Source: Nannocystis bainbridge
Lineage (GTDB): Bacteria; Myxococcota_A; Polyangia; Nannocystales; Nannocystaceae
Direction of reading: 5' to 3'
NCBI RefSeq assembly: GCF_028368995.1
Contig: NZ_JAQNDL010000001.1
Coordinates: 2,880,001 to 2,944,000 of the forward strand
Length of the DNA: 64,000 nucleotides
Positions 51,721-64,000 of this stretch are shown here, one piece after another. The notes under the pieces were generated by a model. That model saw only the letters and a list, made by a program, of their open reading frames with translations. It had not been told where the DNA came from and ran no database searches. The translations under genes and the position numbers were made by a program. Every line of letters begins with the position of its first letter. Within the stretch, counting starts at the first letter, position 1.

Positions 51721-52959
51721 TCAGGAGGTGGGGCGACGTCGTTCCACGACCGCGCGGTACTCGGCGGTGAGGGTGGCCAGCTCGGCGGCCTTGTCATCGG
51801 CAGGGCGGGTGGATGTCGCTCGCTCGGCGTGATCCATCTGCCGGTTCGCGCGGATGATCGCGGTGGTGGCCGGGCGCCGGTCGTTCTCGTACCGCTCCAG
51901 AGCAGCGGGCACGTCGCCGCCGCGGGAGAGTTCGGCGGCGAGGGCGGTGGCGTCGAGAATGGCCTGAGAGGCGCCGTTGGCGCCGATCGGGTACATCAGG
52001 TGCGCGGCGTCGCCTAACAGGGTGACGCGGCCCTGACCCCAGCGGTCGAGCGGCTCGCGGTCGATCATGGGGTAGCGCAGGATCTGTGCGCTGCGCTCGA
52101 AGACGTCGCGCACGTCGAGCCATCCCAGGTCCCAGTGGGCCACGTGGGGCAGGATGTCGGCGAGCTGGCCGGGCACGTCCCAGCCCGCGCTGCTGACCGG
52201 CCCCGGCGTGCCGATGCGAGCGAGCAGGACCCAATTGAGCAGCGCCTCGCCACGCGCGGCGTGCCGGGCGGAGATCGGGTACGCGATCAGGCGCGTGGCC
52301 CGCTGGTCGTTGGCGAGGATCATCGAGTGGCCGTCGAGGAAACCGCCCATCTCGGTCAGGCCGCGCCACATGACCACCCCGGCTCCGTTGAGCGCTCCGT
52401 GTTCGGGGTGGAGGCAGCCACGCACGACCGAATGCAGCCCGTCGGCGCCGATCAGGGCGGCGGCCTCGAACGTGAAGTCGGCGCCGTGGACCCGGTCATG
52501 GACGTGCACGCGGACGCCGCCGCCGGTCTGCTGGAGGTCGTGCAGCCGCACCCCGGTGCGAATCGCGTGGTCGCCGAGCCGTTCGCGGACCGCGTTCAGC
52601 AGCAGCGTCTGCAGCTCGCCGCGATGGATGGAGTACTGCGGGCACGGATAGCCTGCAGCGATGCCGCGCGGCTCGGTCCACAGGGTGACGCCCGTGTGAT
52701 CGATGTAGCGGTGTTCGCGGGTGGGGATGCCGGTCGCCGCCATCGCGTCCCCCAGCCCGAGGGCGGTCAGCTCGGCGACCGCGGCCGGCTGGATGTTGAT
52801 CCCGACACCGAGCGGGCGGAGCTCGACGGCGGCCTCCAGGATGGTCGTGGTAATGCCGCGAGCGTGCAGGGCGAGGGCGGCGGTCAGCCCGCCGATCCCG
52901 GCCCCTGCGATCACGATGTCGGCGGTGGTGTCATTGCTCGTGGCGACGGACAGGGCCAT
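51721..52959 (-). CDS. phzS: FAD-dependent monooxygenase, PhzS-like
   Basis: GAGIGG, LRPLGVGINIQP, QYSIHRGELQ, GADG, GDAAHLMYPIGANGASQAILD; last gene of the phz operon. Confidence 0.85.
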   Translation of the reverse strand: MALSVATSNDTTADIVIAGAGIGGLTAALALHARGITTTILEAAVELRPLGVGINIQPAAVAELTALGLGDAMAATGIPTREHRYIDHTGVTLWTEPRGIAAGYPCPQYSIHRGELQTLLLNAVRERLGDHAIRTGVRLHDLQQTGGGVRVHVHDRVHGADFTFEAAALIGADGLHSVVRGCLHPEHGALNGAGVVMWRGLTEMGGFLDGHSMILANDQRATRLIAYPISARHAARGEALLNWVLLARIGTPGPVSSAGWDVPGQLADILPHVAHWDLGWLDVRDVFERSAQILRYPMIDREPLDRWGQGRVTLLGDAAHLMYPIGANGASQAILDATALAAELSRGGDVPAALERYENDRRPATTAIIRANRQMDHAERATSTRPADDKAAELATLTAEYRAVVERRRPTS

Positions 52960-52981
52960 GGGTCGTACTCCCGCGAATGGT

Positions 52982-53614
52982 TCAAGGCTGCAGCCGGGCG
53001 CTCTTCCAGCCCCCGGGCGCGAGGTCGAAGCGCAGCCGGCGATGCAGTCGGTTGGAGCTCGACGCCCAGAACTCGAGCGCGAGCGGCTGGAGGGCATAGA
53101 CCATGAAGCGCTCCGGGCAAGGCAGCGCGCCCAGATCCGCGAGCCGCTGCGCCTCGTCGAGCAGCGCCGCAGACGAGACCAGGGGCTCGCTCTGGCGCGA
53201 AGCCGTCGACATCGAGTGCAGCAGGACCGGGCGCCGGTTCCACTCCGTGACGGCGCGTTCCCGCGACAGCGCCACGACCTTGCCGCTCACCGAGAGCTGG
53301 CGGCTGAGCTCGCGCCAGTAGAAGTGGCCACACGCGAACGGGACCGCCGTGGCGTCCTCGATCTTGCGGCTGGTGGCATGGGTCGCGAAGACCACGCCGA
53401 CGTCGGCGAACTCGAGGATGGCCATCACGCGCGACGACATCAGCCCCGAGCCGTTCGCTGTGACGAGCACCATGGCGCGCGGCTCGCAGACCTCCGCCTC
53501 GATCGCCTCGCGCAGCCATCGCTGGCCGATCGCGATCGGGTCGTCCGGTGGGTCGTCGTACTCGGGAAAGGCGAGGTCCGCCTCGCCGGTCATGCTTTCG
53601 AGTGTGCTGCTCAT
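52982..53614 (-). CDS. phzG: FMN-dependent phenazine oxidase PhzG
   Basis: EPRAMVLVTA, SSRV, YWRELSRQ, EFW..RLHRR, RLQP. Confidence 0.88.
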   Translation of the reverse strand: MSSTLESMTGEADLAFPEYDDPPDDPIAIGQRWLREAIEAEVCEPRAMVLVTANGSGLMSSRVMAILEFADVGVVFATHATSRKIEDATAVPFACGHFYWRELSRQLSVSGKVVALSRERAVTEWNRRPVLLHSMSTASRQSEPLVSSAALLDEAQRLADLGALPCPERFMVYALQPLALEFWASSSNRLHRRLRFDLAPGGWKSARLQP

Positions 53615-53623
53615 GAGTGACTC

Positions 53624-54466
53624 TCAGATGAAGTAACTGCCGACGGCGATTTGATAGCCGTAGCCCCCCGCCTCGAGGCGCGGCCCGTCCCGCTCCGTGC
53701 GGGCGGTCGCGTCCATGCGCGATGCTCGGCCCATCTCCACGCCCTGGGTGATCCTGATCTTTTCGCCGAACGCCGCCCGACCGTGCCGCACCAAATGCAG
53801 CGCCAGCGGGCCAGCCGCCGAGCCTGTGGCGGCGTCCTCGTTCACGCCGTAAGCGGGCGAGAACATGCGCAGGCGCCAGCCGCCGGCGCCGTCCGGGCAA
53901 AAGCACAGGGCCGCCATGTCGAAGTGGCTCGCCAGCCGGTTGAGATCCGGCCGTACCTCGCCGAGCGCGGCGACGTCTCTCACCCCGACGAACACGTGCC
54001 GCGGCCCCACGTCATACATCTCGACCGGCGACGTGCTCGCTTCGAGGCCCAAAGCCGCAAGGAGCTCGGGCTCGCGTTCATACCGGGACACGACGGGGCT
54101 CGGCTGCTCCATCTGCACGTAGGCAGTGAACGGCCGCGCCTTGACGCGCTCGACGGCGAACCGAAACGTGCCCTTTCGCGTCTCGAATTGCATCTCGTTC
54201 AAGCCGCGATCTTCTGCCAGAGCCACGGCGGTGCCGAGCAGCGGATGGCCTGCGAAGCCCAGCTCGTTGACGGGCGTGAAGATCCGGACCTCGAACGTCC
54301 CGCCCTTCCGCGGCGCACGGACGAAGGTCGTCTCGGAGAGATGGAGCTCGGCGGCCAGGCTCTGCATGTCCCCGTCGTCCAGATCGTCGCAGGCGAAGAA
54401 CACCGCGACGGGGTTGCCGGTGAAGCGCTCCTGGCCGAAGGCGTTGACTACGGTGTATCTGTGCAT
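53624..54466 (-). CDS. phzF: Phenazine biosynthesis isomerase PhzF
   Basis: GNPVAV, LSETTF, RIFTPVNELGFAGHPLLG, EDAATGSAAG. Confidence 0.92.
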   Translation of the reverse strand: MHRYTVVNAFGQERFTGNPVAVFFACDDLDDGDMQSLAAELHLSETTFVRAPRKGGTFEVRIFTPVNELGFAGHPLLGTAVALAEDRGLNEMQFETRKGTFRFAVERVKARPFTAYVQMEQPSPVVSRYEREPELLAALGLEASTSPVEMYDVGPRHVFVGVRDVAALGEVRPDLNRLASHFDMAALCFCPDGAGGWRLRMFSPAYGVNEDAATGSAAGPLALHLVRHGRAAFGEKIRITQGVEMGRASRMDATARTERDGPRLEAGGYGYQIAVGSYFI

Positions 54467-54750
54467 CTTGCTCTCTCCACCAATTCGAAAACGATTCGGT
54501 GGTCGGGCGGCCTGCCGATGAGCTCGGCGGAGACGTTGCGCGGCAGGCTCGCCCGGTCCGGCTTCTCGCCGTGCCACAGCATCAGGGCCCCCCAGCGGCG
54601 CGTCTCCTCGGAGACGAGCCAGAGCTTCGTCGTAAGGTTCGGGACGCGCTCCCATTCGGCGAACGCCTGCTGAATCACCGGGCTCGCCGCCAATGCGTCG
54701 GGATCGGGATCGCCGGCGCCGAGGTCCCACCACGCCAATTCAATCCGCAT
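54448..54750 (-). CDS. Small YdhR-like/PhzX-like protein
   Basis: 100 aa; WERVPNLTTKLW..RWGALMLW; overlaps both phzE and phzF. Confidence 0.65.
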   Translation of the reverse strand: MRIELAWWDLGAGDPDPDALAASPVIQQAFAEWERVPNLTTKLWLVSEETRRWGALMLWHGEKPDRASLPRNVSAELIGRPPDHRIVFELVERARCTDTP

Positions 54751-56614
54751 ACCCCAGGCCTCCGACCGAGAACACCGCGTCGCGCAAGATCCGGGGCCCG
54801 TCCTTCGTCAGCACCGACTCGGGGTGGAACTGCATGGAGCAGAAGCTCGGCCCCTTCAGCCCATGCACCTGATTCGACACGGGGTCGCGATAGACGTTCA
54901 CCGCGCCCCACGGGCTGTCGAAGCGGTCGGCCGCGGAGATGGCCGCGAAGGTGTTGTAGAAGCCGGCCGTCTCCAGCTTGCCGAAGATCGAGATCCGCTT
55001 CTGGAGGCCCTGGTTCGGCGCGGGGAGCCGCTGGATCGGCAGCCCCAGCAACGAGCTCAGCATCTGGTGCCCGAGGCAGATCGCGAGGAACGGCCGGGCC
55101 GCCTCCATCGCGGCCAGCATCAAGCGCCGGCTGGCCGCGACCCGCGGGTCCGTCAGCTTGCACGGGTCGCCGGGGCCCGGCCCGACGACCAGCAGCTCGG
55201 AGTCGCGGACCTCGCCGATGGTGGCGTACGACTCGACCCTCACGTCCAGGCCGAGCTCGCGCAGCAGATACTGCAGCATCGAGGTGAACGCGTCCTCGTT
55301 GTCGAGGATGGCGATGGCGGTCGCCTCGCCGCGACGCGAGACCGGCCGACGGGCGCATGCTTGCTCGCCGAGCCAGAAGCTCGAGAGGCGCCCGCTCCAC
55401 CTGCCGAGCGACTGCGCGACCGCGTCCTTCTTCGTCAGGTCGGCGAGCGAGCCGCCGCCGATGGCATTTTGCAGCGCGGCCGCTTTGGCCGCGGTCTCTT
55501 TCGTCTCGGACTGCGGGTCCGACTCGCGGACCAGGGTCGCGCCGACGCCGATCGCCAGCTTGCCGTCGTTCTCGATCTCGGCCGTGCGGATCAGGATCGC
55601 CGAGTCGAGCCGCGGGCCTGCCTCGTCCTCCTCGACGATAGCCGCGAGCCCGCTGTAGTACGAGCGCCCGCAGGTCTCGTAGCGGGCGATCACGCGGGTC
55701 GCGTTCTCCAGCGGGCTGCCGACGACGGTCGGCGCGAACATCGAGCGCTTCAGGATCTCGGCCACGGGCAGCTCGGTGGTGCCTTCGATGCGATAGCCGA
55801 CGTGAGCCAGTCGCGACATCTGGATCAGGTAGGGCCCGTACGCGCGGACGTCCGCGCTGCAGATGTCGGTCATCATCTTCAGCTCTTCGTCGAGGACCAT
55901 CGACAGCTCGTCCTCCTCCTTCCCGTTCTGCAGGAACTCGAGCACGCCCTCCTGCGTCGGGCCGAGCGCGGGGAACCTGTAGGTGCCGCTGATCGGGGTC
56001 ATGGTGACGTTCTTCGCCTGGAGCTTGATGTGCAGCTCGGGCGAGGCGCCGACGAACGTGATGCCGCGCATGCGGATGAAGAACGTCCAGTACGCGCCGC
56101 GCTCCTGGCGGAGGAGGTTGCGGAAGATCATCAGCCCGACGCGGTCGTCGTAGGCGTCGAGGCCGCCGACGAGCGTGCGCTTGATGACGAAGTTCGACCC
56201 TTCGCCGGTGCCGATCTCCTGGCGGATGACGCGGTCGACGATGTCCGCGTAGGCGGCGTCGTCCGGCGTGAATGCGCAGTCGCGCAGATGGACCTGAGCC
56301 TCGGGCAGCGCCGCCAGTGCCGCCTCGAGCGGCAGGGTCTGATACTCGTCGACGCAGAGCGCCAGCGTCGGCTTGTGGTCGTCCTTGACCGTGAAGCCGC
56401 GCTCGGCGATCTGGCGGTAGGGCGCGACGACGAGCGTCCCCCAGCGGCCCTTCGCGCGCTGTTCGGCCTGGATCTGGCTCAGGTCGTCGAACGCGGCCAG
56501 GATGCGCTCGGTCCCCGCCATCACCTCGATCGTCGGCGCGCCGAACCGGTCGGGGCGAAAGACCAGCGCGTAAGCGTCGAGTTGCCCCGCGAGGGCTCGT
56601 TGCAGGATCGTCAT
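54740..56614 (-). CDS. phzE: 2-amino-2-deoxyisochorismate synthase PhzE
   Basis: GEGSNFVIKR, GASPELH, PISGTYR, ELSMVLDEELKMM, plus a fused GATase (GPGPGDP, ICLGHQ, QFHPES). Confidence 0.92.
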   Translation of the reverse strand: MTILQRALAGQLDAYALVFRPDRFGAPTIEVMAGTERILAAFDDLSQIQAEQRAKGRWGTLVVAPYRQIAERGFTVKDDHKPTLALCVDEYQTLPLEAALAALPEAQVHLRDCAFTPDDAAYADIVDRVIRQEIGTGEGSNFVIKRTLVGGLDAYDDRVGLMIFRNLLRQERGAYWTFFIRMRGITFVGASPELHIKLQAKNVTMTPISGTYRFPALGPTQEGVLEFLQNGKEEDELSMVLDEELKMMTDICSADVRAYGPYLIQMSRLAHVGYRIEGTTELPVAEILKRSMFAPTVVGSPLENATRVIARYETCGRSYYSGLAAIVEEDEAGPRLDSAILIRTAEIENDGKLAIGVGATLVRESDPQSETKETAAKAAALQNAIGGGSLADLTKKDAVAQSLGRWSGRLSSFWLGEQACARRPVSRRGEATAIAILDNEDAFTSMLQYLLRELGLDVRVESYATIGEVRDSELLVVGPGPGDPCKLTDPRVAASRRLMLAAMEAARPFLAICLGHQMLSSLLGLPIQRLPAPNQGLQKRISIFGKLETAGFYNTFAAISAADRFDSPWGAVNVYRDPVSNQVHGLKGPSFCSMQFHPESVLTKDGPRILRDAVFSVGGLGYAD

Positions 56615-57243
56615 TGTTTGCACACCTCGCTCACGGGCAGGACCTTCGCGCAGCATTCAGCCGCGTAGCTCAACGCTTGCGCGTGCTTCTGCTTCGAGAA
56701 GTCGGCGATCGCGTCCTGGACCAGGAAGACCTGGATGTCGCGCGAGTAGGCGTCGATGGCGCTGGCCAGCACGCCGATGTGGGCGTAGACGCCGCAGATG
56801 ATGATCTGGTCGCGGGCGTGCTCGCGGAACCCCTCGTCGAGCGCCGTGGCGTAGAACGCACTGTATCGCCACTTCGCCAGCACCGGGTCCTGGGGCCGCG
56901 GCGCAATCTCCTCGGGGATCGCGGTGTGGGTGGCCGCGCTGCTCATCCCCTTGCCCCAGATGTCGTAGAGGAGGCCGCGCTCCTTCGGCGACATGTCGCC
57001 GCGCTGCGCCGTGTAGAAGATCGGGACGTCGTGCGCGCGAGCGTGCTCGACGAGCTTCCTGCAGCCCTCGACCAGGCTCCGGCGCACCGCCGGCGGCAGC
57101 AGGTCGAGGAAGTAATTTTGCATGTCGTGGACGAGCAGGAGGCTGCGGCGGTCGTCCTGGGCCCACGCGACGATGTTCGCGGCGCTGAGCTCGGGCGCGT
57201 GCAGCTCGTAGTCCTCGATGCGAGGGAAGACCATGTCGTTCAT
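56611..57243 (-). CDS. phzD: Isochorismatase PhzD
   Basis: LLVHDMQNYF, KWRYSAF, CGVYAHIG, DAIADFS; ATGA overlaps on both sides. Confidence 0.9.
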   Translation of the reverse strand: MNDMVFPRIEDYELHAPELSAANIVAWAQDDRRSLLLVHDMQNYFLDLLPPAVRRSLVEGCRKLVEHARAHDVPIFYTAQRGDMSPKERGLLYDIWGKGMSSAATHTAIPEEIAPRPQDPVLAKWRYSAFYATALDEGFREHARDQIIICGVYAHIGVLASAIDAYSRDIQVFLVQDAIADFSKQKHAQALSYAAECCAKVLPVSEVCKQ

Positions 57244-57707
57244 AGCGGGAGCCCCTTGCGGACGATCTGCGGGACCGGGAGGCCCAGCGCCTTGAACTGC
57301 TGGACCGGGTTCATGAACTCGCGCTGGAGCGCGATCTTGCCGGCCTCGAACCTGAAGTAGTGAATGAAGTGGTTCTCGTAGTGGCCCTCGGGGTAGCCGT
57401 CGAAGCGGATGGCGCCCCTGCCGTCGCACTCGACCCAGAACACGTTCGGGTCCTGGGTGTCGAAGATCGTGACGTCGTACCACTGCCAGTCCGGGAAGCA
57501 CTTCAGCGACCACACGGCGTGCGCGGCGAGGCGGTCCTTGCCGCGGATCATGATCGGCTCGCCGGTATCGCTGGTCCACAGGCCGCCGCAGCCGTCCGCG
57601 GTGAACAGCTCGTGGCGCTGCAGGCGGGCCTGCCCGCGGGTCTCCATGTACTGCCGCACGATCTGGCGATTGGACTGGCGCACTTCGGTGTCGGACATGG
57701 TGCTCAT
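57240..57707 (-). CDS. phzB: Phenazine biosynthesis protein PhzA/B
   Basis: RHELFT, GGLWTSDTG, WSLKCFPDWQW, WVECDG, YENHFIH, REFMNP. Confidence 0.93.
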   Translation of the reverse strand: MSTMSDTEVRQSNRQIVRQYMETRGQARLQRHELFTADGCGGLWTSDTGEPIMIRGKDRLAAHAVWSLKCFPDWQWYDVTIFDTQDPNVFWVECDGRGAIRFDGYPEGHYENHFIHYFRFEAGKIALQREFMNPVQQFKALGLPVPQIVRKGLPL

Positions 57708-57937
57708 TGGGCAATTCCTTTCGAGAGGCGCTCGTGAATTTCATTCACGAGAGGAACTGGGCGCTGGCCCTCGACGCGTAGCATGACGCGGGTCCGGCAG
57801 CGCGACAGCCGGCGAGCTCCGGCGGGTGATGCTATCCACACGAGGTAACGGCGCTGAAATCAGTCCTATGATTCGCGGACGGCGGCGCCGTCACGGGCAA
57901 TGCACCGACGACGCCGATGCATCGTGCCGCCAGCGCC

Positions 57938-59317
<1,380 letters not shown>

Positions 59318-60112
59318 TGAGATCACGGGAAACTCCTAGCAGGCCCGACCAGGGTAGCGCCCCATCGCCGTCTCGCCTCGGCGTTACAGGCGCGTGCGGA
59401 TGACGGGCGGCCGTCGTCACAGTCCTCGGGCACACGCGCCCCCCGGCGCTCAACGGTCATATGTCCTCTGGAACACGTACCTTCGGACACCACGGCCTTC
59501 GACTTCGGCGCCTGCTGCGAGACCGAGGATGCGTCGTCGTCGGCGATCGGGACGGCGAAGTCACGGTCGGGCGTCGATGTGGGAGCGCGAGGAGTACCTC
59601 CATTCCGGGCGCGAGTGCGCTGCGGCGGAGTGTGTGACGGGGTGACTGTTAAAAATCCTCCGGTCCACCTTTGGCCACTCGGAGCCGGGCGGCGCAGGCG
59701 ATCACGCATCGGGCCCGAACGAGTCGGCGCCACGACTGCGCAGCGCGCCGTGCGGAGCGACCAGCGCATCGCTTCGAAACGCCGCGCAGCGGCACGAGCG
59801 GCGGGCCGGCCCACGCGCAGCGCGATCAGCGGCCCGGTGAACGGCGAGGCTTCATCGTCTCTGCCGCGGTCCAGTTTCGCCGCGTATGGAGAGAGGATCA
59901 TGGCATTGGTGTGGGCGCATTCACGGGCTCGAAATGGCACGTCCTGATGATGCCTGTCCTTGGGGACATCCCGCATGATCTGCAAAAATGACGCGCCGTG
60001 CCGGCTCTCACCGGCGGCTGGCGCGTCCGTTGCCCGCAAAAGCGGGGGTGCTACCTCTGAACGTGATCGTTTTTGCAGCTCGGCGCGGATCGGCGTCGGG
60101 CCCCAAGGCAGC

Positions 60113-61432
60113 ATGAAACCGCTCCGCTTGATCCCGGCTCTGATTTCGTTCGTCTGCGGCTGCGCTGACGGAGCGGGCGGCTCGGACGATCTGCTGTTCG
60201 ACCCGCTGTCGATGCCCAGGACGCCCACGGTCGGGCTCGACAGCTTCGCCTCGGCGGACGATTGCGGCCTGTGCCACCAGGGCCATTACGACGAGTGGGC
60301 CACCTCGGCGCACGCCTATGCGATGAAAGATCCGGTGTTTCGCGCGTTCGTGGCGATCCGGCAGGAGAACTACGCCGGCAAGCAGGACAAGTTCTGCTTG
60401 CAGTGCCACAGCCCGATCGGCACCCGCGGCGGGGACATCGTGGCCGGCTTCGAATTCGCCGATCTGCAGCCTATCACCCTCGAGGGCGTGACGTGCGAGA
60501 GCTGCCACAAGGTGGCCTCTCTGGCCCGCCCGTACAACAGCGGGCACGTGCTCGACCCCGACGGGCCGATGCGCGGCACCATCGCCGCGCCGATCCCCAG
60601 CTCCTTCCATGAATCGCAATTCTCGCCGCTCCACGGCGGCTCGGGCTTCTGCGCGGGGTGCCACGACCTCCGCGAGGTCAGCGGCCTGGTGCTGGAGCGC
60701 CCTTACGCCGAATGGCAGCAGTCTCCCGCGGCGGAGATCGGCGTGCAATGCCAGGACTGCCACATGCCGCGTTACGAGGGCCAGGCGGTGCCAGGCGGCC
60801 CCACGCGAACGCTTCACCGGCACACGTGGATCGGCGCCGGCATCCCGCTGCTGGAGGGCTTCCTCACCGAAGACGAGGAGGCGGTGCATCGCGTGGAGGT
60901 CGAGCGGCTGCTCGCAGACGCCGCGCGGGTCGACATCGCGGCGCCCTCGTCCGTCGTCACCGGCGATACGCTCGAGCTCGGCATCACCGTCAAGAACAAC
61001 ATCTCCGCCCACAACTTCCCCACCGGCTCGACCTTCAATCGCCAGGCCTGGGTCGAGGTCGTCGTGCGCGACGGCGACGGTCGCGTCGTGTTCGCCACCG
61101 GCACGCTCGACGCGAGCGGAGAGCCGCACGGCCCCGAGCCGCTGCTGCTCGGCTCCGTCCTCGTCGACGCGCGCGGCCAGCGGGTCCTGTTCCCCTGGCG
61201 CGCGGCGGAGCACCTTTCGAACGCCATCGAGCCGCTGCGCGAGCGGGCGCTCCGGCTGAGCGTCGCCACCGCGAGCGCCGGACGCGGGCCGCTCTCGGTG
61301 GAGGCGCGCGTCCTGTTCCGCGCCTTCTCGCCCGCCGCGCTGCGGGCCCTCGGCCTCGACGAGTACGCCGCCAGGCTCGAGGTGCACGAGGTCTCGCGCG
61401 ACCTCGCCAGCGTCGAGCTGCGCCGGCGATGA
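60113..61432 (+). CDS. Pentaheme cytochrome c (c554-like) lipoprotein
   Basis: Five CxxCH motifs (CGLCH, CLQCH, CESCH, CAGCH, CQDCH), HNFPTG, lipobox-like VCGC. Confidence 0.88.
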   Translation: MKPLRLIPALISFVCGCADGAGGSDDLLFDPLSMPRTPTVGLDSFASADDCGLCHQGHYDEWATSAHAYAMKDPVFRAFVAIRQENYAGKQDKFCLQCHSPIGTRGGDIVAGFEFADLQPITLEGVTCESCHKVASLARPYNSGHVLDPDGPMRGTIAAPIPSSFHESQFSPLHGGSGFCAGCHDLREVSGLVLERPYAEWQQSPAAEIGVQCQDCHMPRYEGQAVPGGPTRTLHRHTWIGAGIPLLEGFLTEDEEAVHRVEVERLLADAARVDIAAPSSVVTGDTLELGITVKNNISAHNFPTGSTFNRQAWVEVVVRDGDGRVVFATGTLDASGEPHGPEPLLLGSVLVDARGQRVLFPWRAAEHLSNAIEPLRERALRLSVATASAGRGPLSVEARVLFRAFSPAALRALGLDEYAARLEVHEVSRDLASVELRRR

Positions 61433-61524
61433 TCGCAAGGCGGGTCGGCGCAGTACCCGGCACGAAGCGAGGTGAGCCCAGCCCGGCGCGGAGGCCCCGG
61501 TGAAGCATGGTATGAGTGGCGCCC

Positions 61525-62226
61525 ATGGGCTGGTACACCACCAACGCGGACGACACCTTCCAGTGGAAGTACGGCGACGTGGTCGCCCTCGCGCGCGCCT
61601 CGGGCCTCGGCGCGCTCGTCCTCCTCCCTCGCCTCCAGGTGGTCGACGAAGACGGCGAGTTCTTCGACGGCGAGGAGTTCATCGGACCGATCCAGCAGTG
61701 GGCGATCGAGCAAGAGCTGCCGTGGGAGCAGCCGATCTTGTTCGATCGGGACGACGGGCACGACGAGGCCGTGCCCGTCCCCGGCGACGTCGACGTGACC
61801 GCGCGGCTCGAGCAGTGGGCGAGGGTCCTCCGCACCAACCGCGCGTCGTTGATCGCCGCCCTGCGCCACTTCAACGACGTGGACCACGACGCGTTCGTGC
61901 GCGCCTCGCTCGCCACGGAGGCGATCTGGCGCCTCCCGGAGTCGGACTACGGCGCCCTGATCGCGTGGCTGAACGAGCCGCTCGTAGAGACGGGCGCGCC
62001 GAGGTTCTCGCTCGAAGACCTGCGCGAGGGCGACTTCGACGACGACGAGTACGAGCCCAGCGAGGCGACGCAGGCCGCCCTCGACGCGCTGCCTGCAGGC
62101 GACGATACGCGCGTGATGGCGGCCCACGCGCTCGGGCACGCGCTCGTCGAGGGCTCGCCGCTCGAGCTGTGCCAGCCCGGCGACAGCTACTCGCTGGCGC
62201 TCTGGGGCGACGAGGACGACGAGTAG
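61525..62226 (+). CDS. Hypothetical acidic protein
   Basis: ATG at 61525; GC3 codon bias; very acidic. Confidence 0.65.
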   Translation: MGWYTTNADDTFQWKYGDVVALARASGLGALVLLPRLQVVDEDGEFFDGEEFIGPIQQWAIEQELPWEQPILFDRDDGHDEAVPVPGDVDVTARLEQWARVLRTNRASLIAALRHFNDVDHDAFVRASLATEAIWRLPESDYGALIAWLNEPLVETGAPRFSLEDLREGDFDDDEYEPSEATQAALDALPAGDDTRVMAAHALGHALVEGSPLELCQPGDSYSLALWGDEDDE

Positions 62227-62863
62227 CTCCGCCGCGGCTCTGCGCCTCCGTTCGTCGACCCACCCGAGCACTTCCGTTCCACGCTGGCGCCATGTGGCGC
62301 TCGCCTTGATGAAGGCTTCCTTGAATCGTCTGCGCGGTACTTGGTGACGATTTCCTCTCGCAGCGCCACGGGAAGTTTATTGATCCCCATTTCCCAACAC
62401 ATCGAGAAGGACACCCCAATCCTCGACTCGGTCGAGATCAGGCCGTTCATGCCGGATTGAGGGGCCTTGGTGCCGCGCATACGACCGGTGTATGAAATCG
62501 CGCCTGCCTCGCAGGCCGCCAGTTCGGTGGCCAGTCTGGAGCGGAAATGCATCGACCCGTCGGATTGGGGCGACTTCGCGCGCGGATCGTCATTCATTCC
62601 GCCGGCCGCGCAGCTGCTCACATTCGAGCAGCGTCGAGCTTGGCGTTTCGACGATGAGCGACGCGGGGCAGAACAGCGTCTTCGCGGATTCGTCGAGCCG
62701 GCGCCAGAGAGACGACAGGGACGAACATCGTCCGTCGCGCACGCTGCGCATGTGCGACGATGCATTCCGTTATCATCGATACTATCGCTGCGGTCGCGTC
62801 GGACCCGCTGGCCAATTGCCGACCTCGTCCATGGGCCGTACCTACCCCCCCGGGAGAGTGCCC

Positions 62864-63151
62864 ATGACAGAAGAAATCAAGGTTGGGGAGGTCGCGAAGG
62901 ACCTCCAACTCGTGCTGAATGAGCTGAAGAATGTGCTCAGCACGGCACGCCGCCAGGAAGCGGAGCATCCCCGGAGCTGCGAAGGATGCGGCGGATGCCA
63001 TGGTTGTCACAACTGCCACGGCTGCGGCGGTTGCAGCGGCTGCGGCGGCTGCAGCGGCTGCGGCGGCGGGTGCCACGGGTGCCACGGGTGCCACGGGTGC
63101 GGCGGTTGCCACGGCTGCGGCGGTTGCCACGGTTGTGGTGGCTGCGGTTGA
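62864..63151 (+). CDS. RiPP precursor with a (Cys-X-Gly)n core (heterocycloanthracin/sonorensin-like)
   Basis: GGGAGAG RBS; ~38-aa helical leader, then [21 protein letters not shown]... with 19 Cys. Confidence 0.85.
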
Positions 63152-63229
63152 TCCAACGTTAACGACAATCCCTTGATCGACGCAGCACGGTCCCGGGCCG
63201 TGTTGCGTCGAACCCACTCCGATCTGGGC

Positions 63230-64000
63230 ATGAGCACCGTGATGGCCGAATCGACTCTCCATATTTCTTCGAGTGAGGATGTCACCGCTGCGGAGGTTCG
63301 ACGCCGATTGCGCGGCGCCCGGATCCTCCTGGTCGGCCTCGATCCGTGGGGCGTCGCTGCCGCGGTCGATCTGGCCGCGGCTGGCGTCGGGGCGCTGCAC
63401 ATCCTCGATGACGCGCAGGTGTCGGAGGATGACCTCGCCGCGGAGGTCTTCCCCGAGAATACGCGCGGGCTCGAGCGGGCGGCAGCGCTCTGCGCGACGC
63501 TGCGGCGGATCGCCCCCGAATGCGCAGCCACCTGGAAGCGGCTGTCGGTCGCCGCCCATCGTCCCCTCCTCCACGACGACGGCCGCTGGGATCTGGTGAT
63601 AGCCTGCGTCGCCGCCGACGAACTGCTGGTCCTGCAGAGCGTCGCCCGCTACGCCCATGCGGCCCGAGCGCCCTCGCTCAGTGCCCATATGGATGGACTC
63701 GATGCAGTGATCGGGCCGGCCGTCATACCGGGCGAGACGGCTTGCTGGGAGTGTCATCGATTGCGTCGGCTCGCCCATACCGAGGAAGGCCGCGTCGAGC
63801 ACGCGCTCCAGACCACGCTCCTGAGCGAACGGCCGCAGCCGCGCCGGCGCACTTGTCTGGCGTCCATGCCTGCATTGGTCGGCCACGCCGCCGCGCTCGC
63901 GGCGATCAATCTGCTGGTGCGAGGCAGCGCTTCCCGGTTCGCCGGCGCCGTCGTCGTGCAGAACCTCGTCGAGTTGGAGTCGTCCCTCCACTCCGTGCTG
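63230..64000 (+). CDS. ThiF-like TOMM leader-binding/cyclodehydratase component, truncated by the window edge
   Basis: LRGARILLVGLDPWG..LAAAGVGALHILDD, VIGPAVIPGETACWECHRLRR; open to the end of the window. Confidence 0.85.
   Translation, partial: MSTVMAESTLHISSSEDVTAAEVRRRLRGARILLVGLDPWGVAAAVDLAAAGVGALHILDDAQVSEDDLAAEVFPENTRGLERAAALCATLRRIAPECAATWKRLSVAAHRPLLHDDGRWDLVIACVAADELLVLQSVARYAHAARAPSLSAHMDGLDAVIGPAVIPGETACWECHRLRRLAHTEEGRVEHALQTTLLSERPQPRRRTCLASMPALVGHAAALAAINLLVRGSASRFAGAVVVQNLVELESSLHSVL

Follow-up and report, generated by a model that had tools for sequence, protein, structure and literature searches.

An azole-peptide cassette of the anabaenasin group in Nannocystis bainbridge, with a predicted polythiazole product and a maturase apparently split over two genes

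The window, by which we mean the whole 64,000-nucleotide stretch of DNA that was analyzed (contig positions 2880001-2944000), ends inside a four-gene cassette of 4.4 kb. Genes that extend past the window end are given in coordinates of the stretch L001, in which each position equals the window position minus 60000. Gene A (62864..63151, +) encodes a 95-aa precursor peptide; the translation of this interval agrees with the first-pass annotation, which had described a 95-aa peptide with 19 Cys. A purine-rich GGGAGAG-type stretch in front of it (62852..62858, +) is likely the ribosome-binding site, as judged from its sequence. After exactly 78 bp, as had also been reported, the next ATG (63230) opens gene C-D, which encodes a 714-aa ThiF(C)-YcaO(D) cyclodehydratase and of which the 5' part lies in the window (63230..64000, +; whole gene L001:3230-5374). 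The sequence GPAVIPGETACWEC in this protein matches the GPxxxPGxTACxxC motif that had been quoted for a ThiF-like gene; that gene is ThiF-like, but it represents merely the N-terminal third of the fusion, which continues beyond the window end. Gene B (L001:5385-6149, +), encoding a 254-aa SagB-type FMN dehydrogenase (TIGR03605), follows after 10 bp, and gene 4 (L001:6179-7213, +), encoding a 344-aa stand-alone RRE-C (ThiF-like) protein with a GTG start, after another 29 bp; both are located wholly beyond the window. The peptide had been read as an azole RiPP, against which a missing YcaO would have counted, and a search of the downstream sequence for a YcaO, a SagB-like dehydrogenase, a protease and a transporter had been proposed. 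Directly downstream there are indeed a YcaO, a SagB dehydrogenase and another ThiF protein that carries an RRE, in support of that reading, while neither a protease nor a transporter is adjacent to the cassette. The results of a promoter and terminator scan were at chance level.

The gene A product consists of a leader of ~38 aa, with the first Cys at residue 39, and a 57-aa (Cys-X-Gly)n core that contains 19 Cys, 8 His, 26 Gly and 2 Ser. The spacing of the core is highly regular: 17 of the 18 Cys intervals measure three residues, with one CGGG unit, and none of 100,000 shuffled cores had 17 such intervals (maximum 11). Among the 9-nt repeats that encode the core, the Gly wobble position (position 9) differs in 101 of 136 pairs, as compared to 16 for positions 7 and 8, and since variation at the wobble positions far exceeds that at the positions preceding them, the repeat is kept at the protein level. 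A six-frame scan of the genome identified 13 stretches with at least six Cys spaced by 3-4 residues, the longest of which is the gene A core. A helix is predicted at residues 7-34 of the leader by a single-sequence model, which is confident for the leader helix alone.

The gene A locus is no assembly artefact, since independent sequencing runs contain the precursor region either unchanged or as an allele of ~91% identity. Short contigs over the 5' part of gene A or the gap showed no differences in all four soil and rhizosphere runs examined, and the ~91% identical allele, recovered from a wetland run, spans the gene A leader and genes 2-4, with no Cys codon hit among the 40 rows of differences listed. 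At most 0.20 of the words were present in the sequencing runs. In RNA library X20, short contigs of a relative (92-96%) cover C-D, B and the start of gene 4, and these do not show transcription; libraries X18 and X19 are probably DNA.

Upstream of the cassette, the window contains a gene for a multihaem c-type cytochrome (60113-61432, +; PF13435) that is common to several congeners, and an ORF for an acidic 236-aa protein (61516-62226, +) with no Pfam or NCBIfam match, for which a 92% DNA match at another site was listed in one congener. A non-coding segment upstream of the precursor (62304-62508), with 91% identity over 85 nt elsewhere in the genome and 78-83% in congeners, is possibly a small repeat or a mobile-element remnant at the cassette border. 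A phenazine-type operon occupies 51721-59326 (-) and encodes a class II DAHP synthase with a score over the cut-off, isochorismatase-like, PhzE-like and FAD monooxygenase proteins, a PhzF-family protein that passed some related cut-offs, TIGR00654 among them, and fell short of others, a PhzG-like protein (247 versus a cut-off of 270), and a 155-aa ORF without NCBIfam hit that we assume to resemble PhzA/B. Downstream of gene 4 are a GH1 glycosidase and an SDR-like gene, both of which congeners have without the cassette, and ~7-16 kb downstream are polyketide-synthase-like and thioesterase-like ORFs, as classified from their translations (L001:14185-20000 and L002:1-3018, -).

The C-D protein matched the profiles TIGR03604 (249.7 bits, cut-off 219.25), TIGR03882 (66.1 bits, cut-off 36.9), PF02624 and PF00899, and its best matches among solved structures (PDB) were TruD, LynD and MusD. 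No second close copy was found in the host genome. The YcaO motifs GKG, ExxER(Y), SNG, ExxERD and the C-terminal PHP, which we take to represent the ATP site, are kept in 31-32 of the 32 C-D homologs, with the truncated L072 left out. PxP is described as a mark of azoline-forming YcaOs (PMC7136475). The protein ends in NPDPHPMA, so that the YcaO chain stops two residues past the last Pro, whereas the proposed base of McbD is a terminal Pro (PMC6395948), a difference that speaks against the reading given below. Gene B scored 149.8 bits against TIGR03605 (cut-off 78.4) and contains a Lys185-Tyr186 pair, with KY in 28 of 28 homologs, which corresponds to the catalytic Lys-Tyr pair of the McbC dehydrogenase (PMC6395948). 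By these motifs, both C-D and gene B look active.

The E1-like domains of C-D and gene 4 have both kept two CxxC motifs and share a GL(D/E)PWG loop, with no SNLQRQ. In gene 4, the nucleotide loop reads GLEPWG, with W and G in 20 of 20 sequences and P in 19 of 20 (L066 and L052 left out). Because of this loop and the missing SNLQRQ, unlike the MoeB-like protein of the host (GAGGLG...ESNLQRQ), the two domains are likely to be non-catalytic scaffolds.

The cassette was not found in ten of ten genomes of the same genus or in 30 further relatives, in which the best matches were partial and 26-38% identical; the genes that flank it match congeners at 81-92%. A sample of 400 genomes from the phylum yielded no gene 4 (E 1e-30); by contrast, 18 of 19 genomes of Sorangium, to which So ce56 belongs, contain it. 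The gene order (precursor, C-D, B, gene 4) recurs at 18 of 19 Sorangium loci (16 genomes), with Cys-rich precursors in the syntenic position, and at the metagenome locus L068. The window cassette is an ortholog of the Sorangium cassette. Enzymes that are closer still (64-89% identical) were from metagenomes. The host genome has a size of 11.0 Mb and a GC content of 71-72%, and the GC3 values of the cassette (0.75-0.875) are lower than those of the flanking genes (0.91-0.96; genome 5th percentile 0.825, 25th percentile 0.90), which is suggestive rather than demonstrative of lateral acquisition. At L023, L025, L029 and L030, the precursor and C-D, or the precursor alone, are tandemly duplicated with one gene 4 shared, and the paired precursors differ in core type, a hint of two-peptide products.

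A total of 24 family precursors were collected from 20 of the 25 loci scanned; the regular expression used missed the L038 precursor, which was seen otherwise, and had no match in L040 and L042-L045. These precursors have a common leader with the consensus PKDLDVxxKEIRNAIDDLSxRL, of which the window leader keeps KDL..L.E..N, its identity to the Sorangium leaders being weak (14-33%). A leader profile gave 7.9 bits for the window leader, a score attained by 3 of 1000 shuffles, and genome-wide at least eight other six-frame segments outscored it. A homology search with the precursor yielded 10 proteins, mostly via the low-complexity core and several with NHLP-type or other unrelated leaders, and also gave two proteins with an Anabaena-type leader.

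The family cores are hypervariable, with 11-36 Cys at a spacing of 2-6 and with (CS)n runs among them, and merely 3 of the 24 attain 90% triplets. His is absent from 12 of the 24 cores and occurs at least six times in 5, as compared to 20 cores with at least four Arg and 23 with at least four His and Arg combined. What the family has in common is a core with basic side chains, His or otherwise, among the Gly-spaced Cys, and the purpose that had been suggested for the alternating His residues, metal binding, is weakened accordingly. Uninterrupted (Cys-Ser)n precursors were seen at L030:5298-5669, L029:5443-5751 and L041:5361-5669, with ~27 repeats in So ce56; full processing of such a core would yield a very long contiguous thiazole-oxazole chain. 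The So ce56 (Cys-Ser)n precursor is already listed in Table S2 of Cox et al. (2015; PMC4603692), and the same strain also has a CGGCR core. A second, His-rich cassette in So ce1128 has an MNIO gene (MbnB/TglH/ChrH) and a NicO Ni/Co transporter gene at its flanks (L033:3068-3922, L033:10127-10999). Relatives with single-chain or discrete enzymes (L045:4845-5552, L065:4204-4608, L074:515-850, L089:2604-2996) have precursors in which a long leader that looks helical is combined with a core rich in CxP/CxxC (up to 235 aa), and the Paracoccus locus (L089) contains an additional 624-aa gene between the precursor and the C protein.

No protease, exporter or immunity gene was conserved beside the cassette across the 20 loci compared. 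Recurrent neighbors in Sorangium were genes for Ser/Thr kinases, an amidohydrolase, TPR and OmpA proteins and a P450, and one further upstream gene recurs at 11 Sorangium loci. The host genome contains two adjacent TldD/PmbA pairs (control detected in 8/14); TldD/E is the protease that cuts off the microcin B17 leader (PMC6395948).

The E1 domain of C-D begins near residue 21, which leaves no room for an RRE. The N-terminal domain of gene 4 was modeled as three strands followed by three helices (pLDDT 81.8), and the full-length protein matched the fold of MccB first, followed by TruD, PaaA and LynD. The gene 4 family aligns with the N-terminal half of a Bacillus TIGR03693 F protein (hhalign 97.3%, 19% identity), and gene 4 shares 36% identity with the C domain of the fusion. 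An RRE profile of the gene 4 domain matched 37 of the 120 fusion homologs listed, but none of the 59 closest, and nearly all of the RRE-positive homologs are ~790-830 aa long and 47-55% identical. At the RRE-C-D loci (Undibacterium, a gammaproteobacterium and metagenomes), gene 4 aligns to the first 340 residues of the fusion, with 31-44% identity in the nearer proteins; a stand-alone RRE-C gene in addition to the fusion was not detected at the loci inspected.

A maximum-likelihood tree was inferred from 43 selected C domains, with L066 and L052 (long branch) left out and no Bacillus F protein contained. One clade comprises the RRE-less fusions (11 rows, 99/95), and a second one comprises the stand-alone RRE-C proteins (6 rows, 100/100); together with 18 rows of RRE-C-D proteins, they make up a larger clade of 35 rows (97/97). 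Discrete C proteins fall outside this clade, and quick trees agreed. The stem of the gene 4 clade is long (1.03 changes per column). A candidate for a separate F protein, L066, was rejected, as its frame is broken and it groups with the RRE-C-D proteins. From the domain layout and the tree, we infer that what is one RRE-C-D enzyme in distant relatives is here split into an RRE-less C-D and an RRE-C protein. Duplication with reciprocal domain loss is the simplest reading of the split and not a shown one, because the base of the 35-row clade is not settled and the outgroup does not form one clade.

By analogy, the split can be compared to two known systems, the F protein of Bacillus and the McbB dimer, which is asymmetric. 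The Bacillus heterocycloanthracin system is F-dependent, with a truncated C-D fusion (PMC4603692), and in McbB a single peptide clamp lies between the McbB1 RRE and the McbB2 E1 domain, with McbB2 binding McbD (PMC6395948). Gene 4 is likely the leader-binding partner; a complex prediction for gene 4 and the leader, both supplied as alignments and with the fusion C domain absent, scored 0.02 against a mark of 0.32, a value that we give no weight in either direction.

We consider it probable that the cassette converts most of the 19 Cys to thiazoles and that the product is a Gly-rich, His-studded polythiazole with antibacterial activity. The E1-like domain of gene 4 would probably pair with that of the fusion, with the gene 4 RRE clamping the helical leader in the manner of McbB1 versus McbB2-McbD. 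Very probably, the YcaO would use ATP to cyclodehydrate the Cys, and possibly the two core Ser, to azolines, and it is highly probable that the SagB protein would oxidize these to azoles, with a mass shift of about -20 Da each, and up to -380 Da for 19 rings. More tentatively, the leader might be trimmed by a housekeeping protease such as TldD/E, and the product might leave the cell upon lysis or through a general exporter. With basic His/Arg residues between its rings, the product could then, at somewhat less than an even chance, act like microcin B17 and poison a nucleic-acid target in competitors. The analogy to microcin B17, the hypervariability of the cores and their basic side chains place an antibacterial, nucleic-acid-directed role slightly ahead of an intracellular or metal-binding role. 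The latter is the main rival because of the missing export and immunity genes and the near-universal presence of the cassette in Sorangium: without neighboring exporter, protease and immunity genes a secreted toxin fits poorly, and retention in 18 of 19 genomes suggests a core function more than it does a weapon of individual strains.

A bolder reading, which we regard as unlikely, is that the clade independently re-invented the F-protein system and makes very long azole polymers that are not exported and have a conserved intracellular role in Sorangium-like myxobacteria. The RRE-C-D gene would have been duplicated, with the YcaO lost from one copy and the RRE from the other, and the two genes would hard-wire the McbB1/McbB2 clamp for processive synthesis; the window core would give 19 thiazoles, and family cores reach 36 Cys, including the run of ~27 Cys-Ser pairs in So ce56. 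The role would be nucleic-acid or metal binding, for example, rather than that of a bacteriocin.

In the main rival itself, also unlikely, the peptide is processed identically, with the polythiazole retained inside the cell or at the cell surface, where it would bind metal via thiazole and His nitrogens or serve another housekeeping or developmental role. The lack of export and immunity genes beside the cassette and its occurrence in 18 of 19 Sorangium genomes would agree with retention in the cell. A metal role would also agree with the 8 His of the window core, the five relatives with at least six His and the MNIO and NicO genes beside the His-rich copy, but half of the cores contain no His and usually have Arg instead, and the MNIO/NicO context was found at only one of four extra-site copies (L033), on the opposite strand. 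Ring closure would also consume the thiolates, which are the best soft-metal ligands, and the multihaem cytochrome is the sole metal-related gene that flanks the window cassette.

It is improbable that gene 4, instead of passively binding the leader, is catalytically active as an adenylating enzyme of the MccB or PaaA kind and performs a further modification, for example at the C-terminus. MccB was the best full-length fold match, PaaA also ranked high, and the long clade stem means that the role may have shifted. On the other hand, an MccB/PaaA-type enzyme would be expected to have an intact E1 nucleotide loop and SNLxRQ, as compared to the GLEPWG loop and the missing SNLQRQ of gene 4; the degenerate loop is common to the C domain of the fusion; and the RRE-less fusion would need an RRE in trans.

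Even less probable is that the peptide remains unmodified as a Cys/His metallothionein-like chelator, with incidental or inactive enzymes beside it. The composition of the core (19 Cys and 8 His) would suit a chelator, but the YcaO, SagB and RRE-ThiF genes directly downstream make this reading unlikely. The YcaO and SagB motifs are intact, precursor and enzymes co-occur and were duplicated together in the Sorangium loci L023, L025 and L029, and a conserved leader with a variable core is the pattern of a RiPP.

We compared the cassette to the heterocycloanthracin/sonorensin family (PMC2674419), to which the first-pass annotation had likened it. The two are alike in the Gly-rich Cys-X-X core and in the combination of a truncated C-D fusion without the peptide-binding region, a B protein and, encoded separately, a ThiF-like partner that carries an RRE. 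However, the leaders are unrelated, the window precursor is adjacent to its enzymes whereas that of heterocycloanthracin is remote, and gene 4 has 344 aa as compared to 639 aa for the F protein. No match was obtained at the window for the leader profile TIGR03601 (117-125 bits in the Bacillus control) or the F-protein profile TIGR03693 (1252 bits in the control), both of which exceeded their cut-offs in the control; on the So ce56 ortholog of gene 4, the latter gave 25-29 bits, in the RRE only (cut-off 562). The window YcaO is 25% identical (E 2e-21) to the one Bacillus heterocycloanthracin YcaO compared and falls outside the heterocycloanthracin/thiopeptide group of D proteins. The leader and F-protein tests thus refute a heterocycloanthracin identity. 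Acquisition of such a cluster from Bacillota is hardly credible, even if alignments of the low-complexity core with Bacillus precursors attain up to 69-75%, the C-D, B and F-like gene set is the same in kind, and the ESM Atlas ranks heterocycloanthracin clusters second and third at 0.82 (all below 0.9, a lead only), given the failed profile matches, the shorter gene 4 and a YcaO that is closer to Sorangium than to Bacillus.

The cassette is an azole-peptide (LAP/TOMM) cluster and a member of the catalogued anabaenasin group, with a product that is predicted from sequence. It combines a precursor beside its enzymes, an azoline-type YcaO with PxP, an RRE-E1 partner (gene 4) and an FMN dehydrogenase, and no Lan dehydratase or macrocyclase was present among the adjacent ORFs scanned. 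Cox et al. (2015) place the So ce56 and So0157-2 clusters under "anabaenasin", a group of 11 members with no explored product (PMC4603692), and Table S2 of Travin et al. (2020) includes one So ce56 precursor (PMC7136475). The Sorangium rows in Cox et al. (A9GCG7 and S4Y1K9) were tied to L030 and L039 by identical precursors. The initial impression that no such product has been described holds in that none was found in our searches, but orthologous Sorangium precursors are already contained in the tables of these two studies. For the anabaenasin group as a whole, no product was found in the literature searched, with most subscription journals and bioRxiv supplements outside it, and the name occurs there in one paper only.

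With the YcaO domains of So ce56 and So0157-2, that of the window shares 64-66% identity. The D protein of the window gave E = 0.0 against both (database size 1e10), well within the BLAST limit of E < 1e-54 that defines the group, and 3e-52 against that of Paracoccus denitrificans, slightly short of it. The Gly/Cys-rich core and the four-gene order are also as in the Sorangium loci, and one Anabaena precursor in Cox et al. has CRH repeats (PMC4603692). In contrast, the same source describes discrete C and D proteins, with an architecture that is not conserved (PMC4603692), whereas C and D are fused here and also in the Sorangium members that it lists, and discrete in the Paracoccus locus L089. 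Unlike the Sorangium anabaenasins, the window precursor has a shorter leader and a near-strict triplet core with His and no Arg.

The cassette is not a new class of chemistry. It has a His-rich core, and what is new, as far as the domain layout and the tree tell, is the two-gene split of the maturase, of which we found no description in the literature covered by the same searches. As a compact unit, the cassette offers an easy entry point to the anabaenasin group, and it could reveal the number of consecutive azoles that one synthetase installs and test the two-gene leader clamp as a reproduction of the McbB asymmetry. For the construction of thiazole-peptide libraries, an enzyme set that accepts (CS)n to (CHG)n cores would be valuable as a tolerant catalyst. 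It is a puzzle that, in a genus as heavily mined as Sorangium, the cassette is retained almost universally without export genes.

The fused C-D is shared with the cyanobactin heterocyclases TruD and LynD and with the ~810-aa RRE-C-D relatives from Undibacterium and metagenomes. The latter single-chain proteins are 30-55% identical, and some are accompanied by related leaders and CXX cores (L065); unlike the C-D protein of the window, TruD, LynD and these relatives all carry their own RRE. Microcin B17 has a Gly-rich azole core, and the further genes of its operon (mcbABCDEFG), which provide export and immunity, are absent from the window cassette. The McbBCD synthetase resembles the cassette enzymes in its E1-like RRE scaffold, its YcaO and its FMN dehydrogenase with Lys-Tyr, and also in having two E1-like domains per YcaO and one RRE for the clamp (PMC6395948). 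The difference is that McbB is the product of one gene that is used twice, whereas here two genes would fill the two roles.
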